A stretch of DNA of 64,000 nucleotides from positions 64,001-128,000 of the IMG/VR virus record IMGVR_UViG_3300049020_000031. One strand, given 5' to 3'. The first letter of the stretch is position 1. Each line of letters begins with the position of its first letter. Of the stretch, positions 1,581-62,218 are shown piece by piece. The stretch is from a virus. The notes beneath the pieces are model-generated. The model was not told where the DNA came from, did no database searches, and worked only from the letters and a program-made list of their open reading frames with translations. Position numbers and translations under genes: made by a program.

Positions 1581-2750
1581 TTAAATCACCAAGGTGAACT
1601 CAACTCCGGTATGACTCGTGAATTTTTCTTTCTCGATGCGGAAAAAGTCAACATCTTCTGGTTTTGCCAATCCAACGTCAGAGTGAGTATATGTCCGAAT
1701 ATCATATTTCTGCGTGATTGCGATGGCTCCGGGTGGATTTTGGGTATAATTTCTAACCGCATCGTAATGATACGCGCGGTCAGCAAACTGGGTTCGACCA
1801 GTATAACCAGTCACACCTTTGAGAGTTGCCTCGATGAGGAAGTCTCGATAATGATCTGAATCCTGTGATTGTTCAATCAAGGCTTTCAAATCCGAGACTG
1901 TAATGTTTTCCCGGTTTTTGCCACCCCATACAATCTTCTTGCTGGAGGACACCAAGGAAACAGAACACCCAAAATCGTAAGATGAATAGTGGCTACAGCA
2001 GAACGGATCCAAGAGCAGATCCCTTGCTACCATCTCGTCGAGTTCAAGATCCGTTAGATCTTGAGCCACCTTATCGATGACTTTTACCACCTTTGCATTC
2101 GAGAATATCTCGTATCTGATTTTGTCTTTTTCTTCAATCCGAACCACTTGTTTGCGCGGACCAACAGTAGCCACTCTATCTTTATACATGATGGGCGCCA
2201 TAGTTCCCAGCCAGATACCGTATTGACCGGATGCCAGTCGGACGCGGTCACCCTTCTTCAGGGTTTTCATGTCGACCTTCTCGTCGTCATCTGGCATCTC
2301 CACCGCATTGGCGAAAGGTTCACTGTTCGTTGGGATTAGAATGTTCCTCTGACCTTCACGACCCCAAACACATTCCTGCATAATTTCACCACGTTCGATG
2401 ATACAGATGCTGGATATCATCACGAGATTTTCTACCGTGATTTCAAGTTCAAATCCACGTGGATCTTCAATCCGGAAATAAGTTGCACCGCTTCCATTCC
2501 ATCCGGAACTTCTTTGTACCGATCGACCGATCTTGAAACCAATCATGGGCTTGTTGTCAATGGTAACCGAGTTGAAGGTTTTGGAATTCCCGTAATGGTT
2601 CCTAGCCCAATTATCAACAGTGGCGCGTCGTTTTACCCCGGCGTCATCTTCACCATAAGGAGTCATGAAACCAAGGGGAACTTCGTCTTCAGTACGACGA
2701 CCTTGAAAGCCCACATAGACTTTCTTCGAGATTTTGATTGCGTCTGCCAT
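1581..2750 (-). CDS. conserved phage hypothetical protein (paralogue of 3589..4872)
   Basis: 389-aa ORF; N-terminal YVGFQGRR..EVPLGFMTPY..RIEDPRGFELEI is shared with 3589..4872. Confidence 0.8.
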   Translation of the reverse strand: MADAIKISKKVYVGFQGRRTEDEVPLGFMTPYGEDDAGVKRRATVDNWARNHYGNSKTFNSVTIDNKPMIGFKIGRSVQRSSGWNGSGATYFRIEDPRGFELEITVENLVMISSICIIERGEIMQECVWGREGQRNILIPTNSEPFANAVEMPDDDEKVDMKTLKKGDRVRLASGQYGIWLGTMAPIMYKDRVATVGPRKQVVRIEEKDKIRYEIFSNAKVVKVIDKVAQDLTDLELDEMVARDLLLDPFCCSHYSSYDFGCSVSLVSSSKKIVWGGKNRENITVSDLKALIEQSQDSDHYRDFLIEATLKGVTGYTGRTQFADRAYHYDAVRNYTQNPPGAIAITQKYDIRTYTHSDVGLAKPEDVDFFRIEKEKFTSHTGVEFTLVI

Positions 2751-2759
2751 GATTTCCCC

Positions 2760-3041
2760 TTATCGGCTCATGTGCATAACGAGCGCGTATGCATCTTCTG
2801 CGCTCTTCAACTCTTCCGCAAACTCAGCATCCACTTTGGCGGATGCTTCTTGCTTGGCAATAGCAATACGCTTCTTCAACGCTTGAATCTCCTCCCAGGA
2901 TTCACGGATGCCTGGTTGAGTTGCGTGGAGTTCTGCTTCACTGACATTGGAGTCATCAGTAAGGCTCTTCTCACGTGAGTTTTGCAAATAGCTCATTGGG
3001 TAACTTTCTATTGGTTGGTTGAAGATTGTAGCAGACGCCAC
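2760..3041 (-). CDS. hypothetical coiled-coil protein
   Basis: ORF in a minus-strand operon. Confidence 0.55.
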   Translation of the reverse strand: MASATIFNQPIESYPMSYLQNSREKSLTDDSNVSEAELHATQPGIRESWEEIQALKKRIAIAKQEASAKVDAEFAEELKSAEDAYALVMHMSR

Positions 3042-3544
3042 GCCAGAATTTCACAGGTAACATTTCCATCCAGATCGCGAAGGTATCCCACAGGGGCAAC
3101 GGTGGAATCAAAGCGCTCTGCGTTTACACATGCCAGATAACGATTGACTAGAGTCACATCCATTTCCTCAACTAGTTTGGCCGCAGCGATGAAGCGACGC
3201 GCCATGTTGTTGAACATGAAATATTCAGTATTGAACTGATTCTTTCCTTGATGAAAAGTAGCCATCGTCACAGGCCCAAACTCCAGATTGGTTCTCGCAG
3301 AAGCAAACCTGGATGCGGTAACGGCCGATATTTTGGATTCAGTTTCCCTAGCGTGCTGATAACGCTCGTTCCGTTGTTTGATCCAGAACTTCAGAACATG
3401 ATGCATGCCCCAGAGCTTCTTGATGCGTTCACGATGCAGTTCACGATTCTGCTTGATCTCCTTCGCCATGGAAACCACCACCTCTGGGTAATGATTTTCA
3501 TTAGCGAGTACCTTAGCTGCGATGATGCTGGCTTGATGTGGCAT
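3008..3544 (-). CDS. hypothetical protein
   Basis: CAGGAG SD before ATG. Confidence 0.65.
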   Translation of the reverse strand: MPHQASIIAAKVLANENHYPEVVVSMAKEIKQNRELHRERIKKLWGMHHVLKFWIKQRNERYQHARETESKISAVTASRFASARTNLEFGPVTMATFHQGKNQFNTEYFMFNNMARRFIAAAKLVEEMDVTLVNRYLACVNAERFDSTVAPVGYLRDLDGNVTCEILAWRLLQSSTNQ

Positions 3545-41677: not shown

Positions 41678-42904
41678 TTAACCCTTAACGCAGAGTACCG
41701 CCTTCAGAGTTTCCACCGTATCGACCAGATCAGTTTGGTTGGCCATCACTTGATCGATCGACTTGTAGGCTGATGGAATTTCGTCCAACACACCGTCATC
41801 CTTACGACATTCAACACCAGCGGTCTGAGCTTCCAGATCAGCCAAGTTGAACAGCTTGCGAGCTTGGTTGCGAGAATGAACTCGACCAGCACCATGACTG
41901 CAAGAACAGTAGGCTTCGTGGTTACCCTTACCCTTCACGATGTAGCTCTTTTGTCCCATCGATCCAGGGATAATTCCCATTTGACCAACCTTTGCCTGGA
42001 TTGCTCCCTTACGAGTAACCCAGGTTTCTTCACCGAAGTGATCTTCCAAGGAAGTGAAGTTGTGGTGGCAGTTGATGATCTCACCAACCACCTTCATGTT
42101 GGCAAACTTCGTGCGCAAAACTGCCAACACTAGGTTCATCATGGTGTCACGATTGAATCGAGCGTAGTCTTGTGCCCAGTGCATTGCCGTGATATAGTCA
42201 TCGAAGTCTTGCGTACCTTCATCCAACCAAGCAAGATCCTTATCTGGGAGACCCCAGTCACGTTGTGCTGCTTGAGCCTTTGCCATCTCGATAGCCACAG
42301 TACCGATTTGATTTCCGATACCACGTGAACCACTGTGCAGCATCACCCACACGCATGAGTTGGCATCCAGACACAGCTCGATGAAGTGATTACCACCACC
42401 AAGAGTTCCGATCTGACGGCCGATCTTGTTGATATCGGCGCGTCCCAGACGCTCCTTGAGCGCAAGCTGATCGAATGAATCCATGGTCTTACGCAGGTTC
42501 TTTCGCAGAACATCAGCGTAAGGGCCAGTCACGGTTGGGATACCAGCCTTGTGCTCGTTGAAGCCAACTGGAACATCACGTTCAATCGCGTTGCGGAGAG
42601 AAAACAGGGAGTCAGGCAGATCTTCTGCCATCAGGTTGGTCTTTGCTGCGATCATCCCACAGCCGATATCAACACCCACGGCAGCGGGGATGATAGCTGA
42701 ACGAGTAGCAATCACGGAACCAACAGTGGAACCCTTACCAGCATGAACGTCTGGCATAACAGCCACACCATTGGGTGCAATGATAGGCAGGCTTGCCAGA
42801 TTACGCAGTTGCTCCAGAGCCGAGTCTTCGATCTGTGGAGAACCATCTGCATTCACGCCCACCCATGCCTTAATGGGGTGGGTTCCTTGATTGATTGTGA
42901 TCAT
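41678..42904 (-). CDS. rtcB: RtcB RNA ligase
   Basis: MPDVHAGKG, VGVDIGCG, GTLGGGNHF, HSGSRG, HHN, RKGA, PGSMG, SHGAGR, DEIPSAYK. Confidence 0.97.
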   Translation of the reverse strand: MITINQGTHPIKAWVGVNADGSPQIEDSALEQLRNLASLPIIAPNGVAVMPDVHAGKGSTVGSVIATRSAIIPAAVGVDIGCGMIAAKTNLMAEDLPDSLFSLRNAIERDVPVGFNEHKAGIPTVTGPYADVLRKNLRKTMDSFDQLALKERLGRADINKIGRQIGTLGGGNHFIELCLDANSCVWVMLHSGSRGIGNQIGTVAIEMAKAQAAQRDWGLPDKDLAWLDEGTQDFDDYITAMHWAQDYARFNRDTMMNLVLAVLRTKFANMKVVGEIINCHHNFTSLEDHFGEETWVTRKGAIQAKVGQMGIIPGSMGQKSYIVKGKGNHEAYCSCSHGAGRVHSRNQARKLFNLADLEAQTAGVECRKDDGVLDEIPSAYKSIDQVMANQTDLVDTVETLKAVLCVKG

Positions 42905-60726: not shown

Positions 60727-61796
60727 AATATTCTCCTTGATAGGGCCATCAACATGATGGCTAATGTCAAGTCTATTTATGGTTTTCCATAGTCAAACTG
60801 TATCATTTTCCCGTTCATCCTTAATCGTCTTAGCCATCTTGGACACATCAGAAATAATGCGAGTCATCCGTCTTTTCCTGGTTGCCGTTTTATTGATCTG
60901 AAACGACACCAGACATAACACAGTCGGGATGGCGTAGAGCAGAATCAACATGAATTGCCACTCAGAAAACCTAGAATGAATGAATAGGTTCCACAAAACT
61001 CCCACCAGCATACTGCCGTTGATAAACGCGGCAATAGCTAGGATCATTTGAGTTCCAAAGTACATTCTTACTCCCAGAATTTCCACCAAGGACGAGTCAT
61101 TTTCACGAAGTCTGGATCTTCAGGACGAACCCAACCATAGGGATTCTTCTTACCGGCCTCGGTTTGCAGATAAGCTAGTTCATCTTCCAGTTGCTTCACC
61201 TTCCAATCAAGCTCAGCCTGATATGCAGGGAGATTACCGTCATCGTAGATTCTAACAAGTTTGCGACATTCAAGGAATGTCATCCCTGATTGAACGCATC
61301 CGCTCTCAAGACCAGCTCGATATTGAACCGTGTGCAGGCGATGCAACGAGAATCCCAACAGCACCAGAACGACTACGATACAAGCTAGGGCGCTGGCGAT
61401 TGTCCAATCAATTTTAAACTTTTTCACTGATAGCTCCAATGGGAAATGATGATATGCCAGTATACGACACATCATCAGTTAATGTGGTAAGATGAACTTA
61501 ATTTAAACCGCTTGATACATTTCAGGGCCCGTTACCTCACCAACACGTTGGATAGCACCGTCGTTGATAAGTTCTTGCAGTGGGCCCCGGACTTCACTCA
61601 ACCAATTGGTGACTGTGTGGCCGTCAGCCTTCACTGCTTCGCTGATCTGTGCCCAAGTAGCGGTTCCGCTCTTTGCGATGAAGTTATCCAGAGTGCTCAA
61701 CATTTTGCGACGATTTACGGCCATTTTGATCTCCTTGTTGCGATAGTTGATTATACTTCATTTGGTGAAAAACGCAACAAGTATTTGAATCCAATG

Positions 61797-61823
61797 AAAA
61801 AGAGTGGCTTGCGCCACTCTTTT
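61797..61823 (-). terminator. terminator of the tmRNA gene
   Basis: AAGAGTGGC-GCAA-GCCACTCTTTTT. Confidence 0.8.
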
Positions 61824-62183
61824 AAGGTCATGTTGTTACACAGTTGACCGAACTATGAATCAGGCCGCGATGGCTTGATTGTAGGAATTATCGTTTGCAG
61901 ATAAAAGTTTCGCATCCTTAACGACGTCGCATGTCGTGTTGTCAAGCTCCGATATCTCGCCGAGTCGATAGCCAGTTCACCCCCATCACAAGCGCTCTAG
62001 CGTTCCAAACTGCCTCAGCGAGAGTTGAACTCGCCCGCGTCTACATCGCAACAACTTTGACCCCGTAAGCGCCGGAATCGAACCGACGTGCTGGAGCGCT
62101 TGTGGTGGAGGTGGGGAGAGTCGAACTCCCGTGTTCGCCGCCTTCACTTTACCATCTGGTGGGTGATCCCACCTACAACAATT
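61824..62183 (-). ncRNA. ssrA: circularly permuted (two-piece) tmRNA
   Basis: The acceptor piece (T-arm GGGAG TTCGACT CTCCC, then CACCTCC-A-CCA ending at 62103) precedes the coding piece. The coding piece starts GGGGGTG at 61984 (G3.U70 pair) and carries the tag ORF GCA..TGA at 61898-61860 = ANDNSYNQAIAA*. Confidence 0.9.
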
Positions 62184-62189
62184 TCAATT

Positions 62190-62218
62190 AGTATAACACC
62201 ATGATATTTACACCGCAA
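62190..62218 (-). promoter_or_regulatory. sigma70-type promoter of the tmRNA
   Basis: TTGCGG, 17-nt spacer, TATACT. Confidence 0.65.

Follow-up and report, generated by a model that had tools for sequence, protein, structure and literature searches.

Canonical T-arm hairpins in the intervening sequence of a phage permuted tmRNA gene

The tmRNA locus

We analyzed a window of 64,000 nucleotides, corresponding to bases 64001-128000 of a 141.5-kb IMG/VR virus record that is ~33% complete by CheckV estimate and hence a jumbo-phage fragment. On the minus strand of this window, ARAGORN predicts a permuted tmRNA at 61769-62195 with the tag ANDNSYNQAIAA. The Rfam model RF04321 (tmRNA_permuted) matches the locus with 75 bits against a threshold of 47, and RF01850, which describes the betaproteobacterial two-piece tmRNA, matches with 55 bits, below its own threshold. 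Permuted (two-piece) tmRNA genes were reportedly described by Keiler et al. in 2000 and by Sharkady and Williams in 2004.

The acceptor piece lies at 62103..62195 on the minus strand, as delimited by ARAGORN, the RF04321 and RF01850 alignments and the sequence itself. Its sequence contains the true T-arm of the tmRNA (62130-62114), the acceptor 3' strand (62113-62107) and the ACCA end (62106-62103). The coding piece (61796..61984, minus strand; ARAGORN, Rfam and folding) starts with G1 at 61984, carries the tag frame at 61898-61860, and is predicted to end in a terminator hairpin (~61824-61796). Between CCA and G1 lies an intervening sequence (IVS) of 118 nt at 61985..62102 of the same strand, where IVS nt 1 is position 62102 and nt 118 is position 61985. 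It forms an insertion in the Rfam alignment. An earlier note on this DNA had placed a spacer at exactly these limits, and the sequence, ARAGORN and Rfam all agree with it.

Downstream of the tmRNA, genes encode a 222-aa protein at 1.3 kb and a 139-aa protein at 1.9 kb. A search for relatives of the 73-aa gene adjoining the tmRNA found none. When the locus was compared by BLAST with 50,697 phage records, the sole match was to 59 nt of the acceptor piece, in Xanthomonas phage Xoo-sp13, and the IVS interior was unmatched. A metagenome scan with the T-arm of the acceptor piece returned six loci; a coding piece followed the acceptor end in none of them (0/6), and none was a relative (0/6). Elsewhere in the window, at 41681-42811 on the minus strand, there is a gene for a full-length RtcB RNA ligase (PF01139, 414 bits).

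A closing helix common to phage IVSs

The IVS is closed by a helix formed from nt 1-13 (62090..62102, minus strand) and nt 102-114 (61989..62001, minus strand). It consists of 9+3 base pairs, with nt 1-9 paired to nt 106-114 and nt 11-13 paired to nt 102-104. The pair probability is 0.94-1.0 when the IVS is folded alone, and is 1.0 for nt 1-9/106-114 in the 406-nt precursor. The remaining four nucleotides before G1 form a tail, UGAU (61985..61988, minus strand), which lies opposite ACCA with three of the four positions pairable, so that the acceptor stem, ACCA/UGAU and the closing helix join into one long helix in the precursor fold.

Permuted tmRNAs of other phages were gathered by pattern scans and via syntenic relatives, which gave a geometry set of 49 unique stem-closed phage IVSs of 30-130 nt, the window's included. 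In every one of the 49, nt 1 pairs with nt L-4 (nt 114 in the window) and at least eight pairs form within the first ten positions. Many pair types are found at every position of the helix across the set, which amounts to covariation. The tail before G1 is TGAT in 36 IVSs, TAAT in seven, TGAC in four and TGCT in two. On this comparison, the closing helix is best described as a putative processing helix that is generic and class-wide, and the window's IVS is an ordinary member of the class. In the earlier note, the long closing stem formed part of the case for a nested tRNA mimic. The stem itself exists, but because the helix and tail are common to all 49 phage IVSs, it is no evidence for such a mimic.

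The usual TGAT tail keeps a C74·A mismatch opposite ACCA, and a fully complementary TGGT was seen only at the loci L264 and L148. The conserved mismatch in the ACCA/tail stretch may mark a processing site.

Two T-arm hairpins inside the closing helix

The interior of the IVS contains the two T-arm-like hairpins described previously. T-arm 1 (GTCGG-TTCGATT-CCGGC) occupies IVS nt 16-32 (62071..62087, minus strand) and T-arm 2 (GCGAG-TTCAACT-CTCGC) occupies nt 69-85 (62018..62034, minus strand). Each has a stem of five base pairs with G53-C61 and a canonical loop (T54 T55 C56 R57 A58). Both are real tRNA-type T-arms; of 301 proteobacterial genomes sampled, 17 have true tRNA-Cys or tRNA-Thr genes whose T-arms agree with T-arm 1 over 18 nt without a difference. 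An initiator-tRNA origin of T-arm 1 was considered and rejected, the matching genes being tRNA-Cys and tRNA-Thr instead.

We scanned both strands of the whole 141.5-kb record with a strict T-arm motif and obtained ten matches, compared with 0.86 expected from shuffled sequence. Four of these fall in a tRNA-mimic array, one in a suppressor tRNA, one in the T-arm of the tmRNA and two in the IVS, and the other two are probably chance matches. By arithmetic from the shuffle expectation, the chance rate is ~3.6e-4 matches per 118 nt, and two in the IVS would be a ~1e-7 event. The T-arm pair is thus far beyond chance.

The predicted folding of the interior is less striking. T-arm 2 is part of the minimum free energy (MFE) structure with a probability of 0.74, while T-arm 1 lies outside it with a probability of 0.27, and forcing it costs 2.4 kcal/mol. 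The fold z-score of the whole IVS is only -1.64. A middle stem-loop, also mentioned in the earlier note, is present but weak to marginal. We found no paralogue of the IVS interior in the 141.5-kb record and no match to an exact pattern of the T-arm 2 region in viral contigs. A scan for a double T-loop pattern gave 32 loci, none of which (0/32) was a tmRNA IVS.

The IVS is neither a tRNA nor a YrlA RNA

Identification of the IVS as a tRNA was rejected. ARAGORN calls no tRNA, the tRNA model RF00005 has no match at E<=10 on the IVS alone, and manual threading produced no anticodon arm. Attempts to fit either T-arm into a cloverleaf also failed, and complements to the 7-mers that follow them (GCTTACG and TGAGGCA) were not found. 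The YrlA covariance model (RF02553) was rejected likewise, with no match at E<=10 on the IVS alone. At this cutoff, Rfam gives just two results for the IVS alone: hairpin 1 weakly matches the 3' end of a tmRNA (8 bits), and the bases that open the coding piece are matched trivially (3.6 bits).

The earlier note had compared the order of elements in the IVS with that of YrlA. [quoted passage not shown] Neither free nor constrained folds of the IVS place a closed acceptor-like hairpin after either T-arm. The proposed D-loop-like string, AGTTTGGAA, is present at 62003..62011 (minus strand), but no D-stem of 3-4 bp compatible with the closing helix was found, and in constrained folds part of the string is taken up by alternative pairings. 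The Rsr-binding motif GNCGAAN0-1G was not found in the IVS by a regular-expression search, which agrees with the absence of a Ro60-binding motif reported before, and a search of the 141.5-kb record, itself ~33% complete, for a TROVE/Ro60 gene (PF05731) gave no match. With no model match, acceptor-like hairpin, compatible D-stem or Rsr motif found in the IVS, and no TROVE gene found in the record, the YrlA-like architecture is not supported.

A better candidate for such an architecture exists outside the window in the same phage. A YrlA-like array of four tandem units lies at approximately 2650-3160 of G000:C1 on the plus strand. Each unit consists of a T-arm, a closed hairpin of 6-9 bp directly after it, and then a hairpin that resembles a D-arm; the first two units, at least, have a closing stem of their own. 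Within the region G000:C1:2200-3500 (L161), the YrlA model matches at positions 728-790 with 33.5 bits (E 3.9e-5), and a second match has 19 bits. The tRNA model reaches 29.2 bits there with a ~60-nt insertion, and ARAGORN calls no tRNA. The array therefore acts as a positive control for the YrlA search, and the IVS does not share its architecture. The IVS is neither a tRNA nor a YrlA or other Y RNA.

The IVS interior in relatives

Homologues of the 139-aa and 222-aa neighbour proteins were identified with 46-92% identity, and five contigs contain a syntenic permuted tmRNA. The contigs with the closest neighbour-protein relatives (92%, 81% and 72% identity) end before the tmRNA and so fall outside the IVS comparison. 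The IVSs of the five syntenic relatives are 23 nt (L148/L147), 30 nt (L155), 73 nt (L169), 79 nt (L153) and 89 nt (L152) in length. Identity to the window is 50-87% for their acceptor pieces and 44-65% for their coding pieces. Between their IVSs and the window's, it is only 6-21% over all alignment columns and 8-36% pairwise, and they are not alignable to the window's.

The terminal helix and tail are kept in all five relatives, and the T-loop motif is present in none of their IVSs (0/5). The strict T-arm was also not found among 38 other unique stem-closed IVSs of 100-130 nt (0/38), or among the 48 other phage IVSs of the geometry set (0/48), part of which were checked by eye. Conservation and covariation in related phages, by which the earlier note had proposed to judge its reading, are therefore seen for the closing helix, which covaries across the 49 IVSs, but not for the interior, where the five syntenic relatives have no T-arms. 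The IVS interior is hypervariable and insertion-tolerant, and spans 5 to more than 100 nt. Published IVSs also tolerate inserts: one houses an intact tRNA-Ala gene, and a repeat element occupies another (PMC11915505).

T-arm hairpins recur in IVSs of other phages

We carried out two targeted scans for T-loops that come within 8-40 nt after a 3' end of the tmRNA type. They yielded 15 loci with stem-closed permuted phage tmRNAs, 11 of them unique (L204, L235, L249, L255, L264, L290, L295, L307, L308, L323 and L335), in which a hairpin with a T-loop and a stem of 4-5 bp sits immediately inside the closing helix. Position and frequency in this set are biased by the motif-targeted search. T-arm-bearing IVSs thus recur beyond the window. 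In most of the 11 the T-loop hairpin is the first branch after the closing helix, and in most it belongs to the MFE structure or lies no more than 0.6 kcal/mol from it, with L255 and L308 being 1.2-1.6 kcal/mol above. As a control, a stem of at least 4 bp was present in 49 of 75 matches to the motif in viral contigs, versus only 13 of 121 matches in bacterial genomes. The bacterial-genome scan gave at least 120 matches, mostly motif noise after tRNA-Ala or tmRNA ends, and none of those retrieved was a stem-closed permuted IVS.

Two cases deserve separate description. The IVS of L264 shares with that of the window an identical block of 21 nt, CGTCGGTTCGATTCCGGCGCT, and the agreement extends to ~26 of 28 bases with the flank counted. 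The L264 tmRNA is very distant, with an acceptor piece 53% and a coding piece 38% identical to those of the window, and the two loci share no neighbour genes. In the family formed by L290, L295 and L335, the T-arm is the best-conserved block of the IVS, and the closing helix and a third hairpin covary. Here the closing helix (7-8 bp) and the directly stacked T-stem (5-4 bp) together make 12 bp.

T-arms in IVSs are a rare but recurring extra. Taken together, the canonical T-loop residues, the recurrence, the conservation in L290/L295/L335 and the block shared with L264 suggest that the T-arm is under selection in some lineages at least.

Other elements in phage tmRNA and tRNA loci

Several further elements were encountered during these scans. 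In the IVSs of L039, L052, L093, L038, L040, L083 and L019, an ATG with an open frame comes after a GGAG that resembles a Shine-Dalgarno sequence. The frame of L039, the sole one read through, encodes a short hydrophobic peptide and runs into the closing helix. Such frames may be micro-ORFs carried by the excised spacer. Large phage tRNA arrays (L114, L193, L222, L224 and L252) contain orphan T-arm hairpins, which are found 10-40 nt downstream of a tRNA-Ala gene or a standard tmRNA gene. After some of these hairpins come an acceptor-like 7-mer and ACCA, but no 5' half is present, and the group may represent truncated tRNA-like units or tRNA-gene debris. Finally, L143 and L145 have a tmRNA-type acceptor end (T-arm, CACCTCC and ACCA) followed by a Shine-Dalgarno sequence and a small ORF, with no closing helix or coding piece within 260 nt. 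Each may be an acceptor-only tmRNA-like gene.

Discussion

The explanation that we favour, and hold with moderate confidence, is that the window's T-arms are tRNA-derived modules lodged in a permissive spacer and dispensable for the function of the tmRNA. On this reading the IVS is the excised spacer of a phage-encoded, beta-type two-piece tmRNA gene, and its working part is the generic one, namely the terminal helix running from the first base after CCA to 4 nt before G1, plus the UGAU tail. Acceptor stem, ACCA/UGAU and closing helix would form one long quasi-continuous helix, which could set both processing sites side by side for tRNA-processing nucleases. Among these, RNase P is the probable enzyme for the G1 end. 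The CCA end would need an endonucleolytic cut at the edge of the helix, which might be made by RNase P, with the helix and its 4-nt overhang as a minihelix-like substrate, or by RNase III, acting on a duplex of ~20-25 bp. The T-arms were most likely captured from tRNA-type sequence. They are probably not needed for tmRNA function, since the nearest relatives do without them, and they presumably have no function in trans.

Several observations sit uneasily with this explanation. Both T-arms retain every canonical T-loop residue, which is unexpected of long-decayed relics. In addition, a T-loop hairpin of at least 4 bp comes right after the closing helix in 11 further unique phage IVSs, the T-arm is the best-conserved block in L290/L295/L335, and the 21-nt block is common to the window and L264 despite the 53%/38% identity of their tmRNAs.

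The main rival, which we regard as possible although somewhat unlikely, is that the T-arms serve in cis as a processing handle. They would make the IVS resemble a tRNA or minihelix, so that RNase P or another enzyme that reads the tRNA elbow cuts at IVS nt 1. Besides the cut at G1, such a cut would directly leave the CCA-3'OH of the acceptor piece. The generic geometry does mimic an acceptor end, in that a helix begins at nt 1 and a 4-nt 3' overhang is left after the G1 cut. The 12 bp of helix plus T-stem in L290/L295/L335 equal the length of the tRNA acceptor/T stack, and the conservation of the T-arm in this family points the same way. M1 RNA, moreover, cuts the YrlA of M. smegmatis, which has a 7-bp acceptor-like stem (PMC4201824), and there is room for such a role in that the 3' processing of two-piece tmRNA is only presumed, a review naming 'probably RNase P and tRNase Z' (PMC3985003). 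On the other hand, the closing helix of the window has 13 layers and is followed by a 2-nt linker, so that the distance from nt 1 to the T-loop is not 12 bp. Both the linker and the helix differ greatly in length from one T-arm IVS to another, most IVSs manage without a T-arm, and T-arm 1 folds with a probability of only 0.27.

We consider it improbable that the excised IVS is a stable, stoichiometric tRNA mimic that acts in trans as a Y-RNA-like molecule, decoy or regulator, as the earlier note had proposed from the sequence. Such a putative role would fit with two canonical T-arms and a GG-containing loop string, with a stable helix that hides both ends and leaves a 4-nt 3' overhang, with the recurrence of T-arm IVSs, and with a phage that invests both in RNA repair (RtcB) and in tRNA mimics (the YrlA-like units). 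However, the IVS has no YrlA or tRNA match at E<=10, compared with 33.5 bits for the phage's own array. No closed acceptor-like hairpin, compatible D-stem or GNCGAAN0-1G was found in it, and no TROVE gene was found in the record. The T-arm interior is missing from five of five syntenic relatives, and the z-score of the fold is unimpressive. Two specific roles had been suggested for the released RNA. Service as a decoy for anticodon nucleases is unlikely because the IVS has no anticodon-like arm. A role as an RtcB substrate is unlikely if the ends are made by RNase P, because RNase P leaves 5'-P/3'-OH ends.

Local duplication is a far less probable source. It would make the IVS T-arms slipped or duplicated copies of the tmRNA's own T-arm, which lies ~30-100 nt upstream. 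T-arm 2 indeed differs from the true T-arm at only three of 17 positions, and one of the differences is a compensated G-C to C-G swap. Yet over the 12 T-arm IVSs the likeness to the T-arm of the same tmRNA (4.6 of nine free positions) is no greater than that to the T-arms of other tmRNAs (4.4 of nine), which argues that local duplication is not a general source. The flanks are without similarity, and T-arm 1 matches the T-arms of tRNA-Cys and tRNA-Thr and the L264 IVS instead. As for chance hairpins without any tRNA ancestry, with which the unremarkable z-score would agree, this origin is effectively refuted by the whole-record scan (~3.6e-4 expected per segment and two observed), both hairpins having G53-C61 and the full T-loop consensus and one recurring within the identical 21-nt block of L264, and its probability is negligible.

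Known RNAs resemble the IVS in some respects. Hairpins of the minihelix and 4.5S type are substrates of RNase P, and tRNA-like structures can act as 3'-end processing signals, as mascRNA does downstream of MALAT1. The IVS is similar in that a helix carries a short 3' overhang, in that some IVSs have a T-loop ~12 bp away, and in that cleavage at the 5' edge would create the mature 3' end of the upstream RNA. It differs in that the geometry of the window misses the 12-bp ruler.

Like the IVS of other permuted tmRNAs (RF04321 and, more weakly, RF01850), that of the window is located between CCA and G1, does not form part of the mature RNA and belongs to a class variable in length and sequence. 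Unlike them, it carries two canonical T-arms, whereas the inserts that we found in the literature are one tRNA-Ala gene and one repeat element (PMC11915505). The former, a tRNA nested in the tmRNA IVS of one nominally archaeal metagenome-assembled genome (PMC11915505), is comparable in bringing tRNA-type sequence to a place where tRNA-processing enzymes already act; in the window's IVS, by contrast, there are only T-arms, and no cloverleaf, anticodon arm or acceptor stem. YrlA (RF02553; Chen et al. 2014, PMC4201824) and the IVS both have a closing stem, after which comes a T-arm whose T-loop residues are canonical. The IVS departs from YrlA by a second T-arm, by having no acceptor-like stem-loop between T and D and no clear D stem-loop, and by being without GNCGAAN0-1G, a neighbouring Ro60/TROVE gene or a model match, and the same phage has better YrlA-like units. 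Our literature search found no paper that describes T-arm hairpins in tmRNA IVSs, and they appear not to have been described before.

A broader proposal, which on the sequences compared here we think unlikely, is that a subset of phage two-piece tmRNA IVSs has evolved into tRNA-like junction RNAs, in which an 'acceptor' helix closes the RNA and leaves a 4-nt 3' tail, and the first branch is a genuine T-arm. These might be built-in RNase P substrates that make the CCA end, or modified, stable mimics of the tRNA elbow that are released one-for-one with the tmRNA, and the double-T-arm IVS of the window would be one case.

The way in which two-piece tmRNAs acquire the CCA end of their acceptor piece has so far only been presumed. 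The class-wide geometry, in which a helix starts just after CCA and a 4-nt tail is complementary to ACCA, turns this into a concrete model of RNase P versus RNase III. If the T-arms matter, they would represent a new use of tRNA mimicry in RNA 3'-end formation, or a by-product noncoding RNA of phage translation-rescue genes. If they do not, phage tRNA-gene turnover would leave T-arm debris in tolerant spacers.
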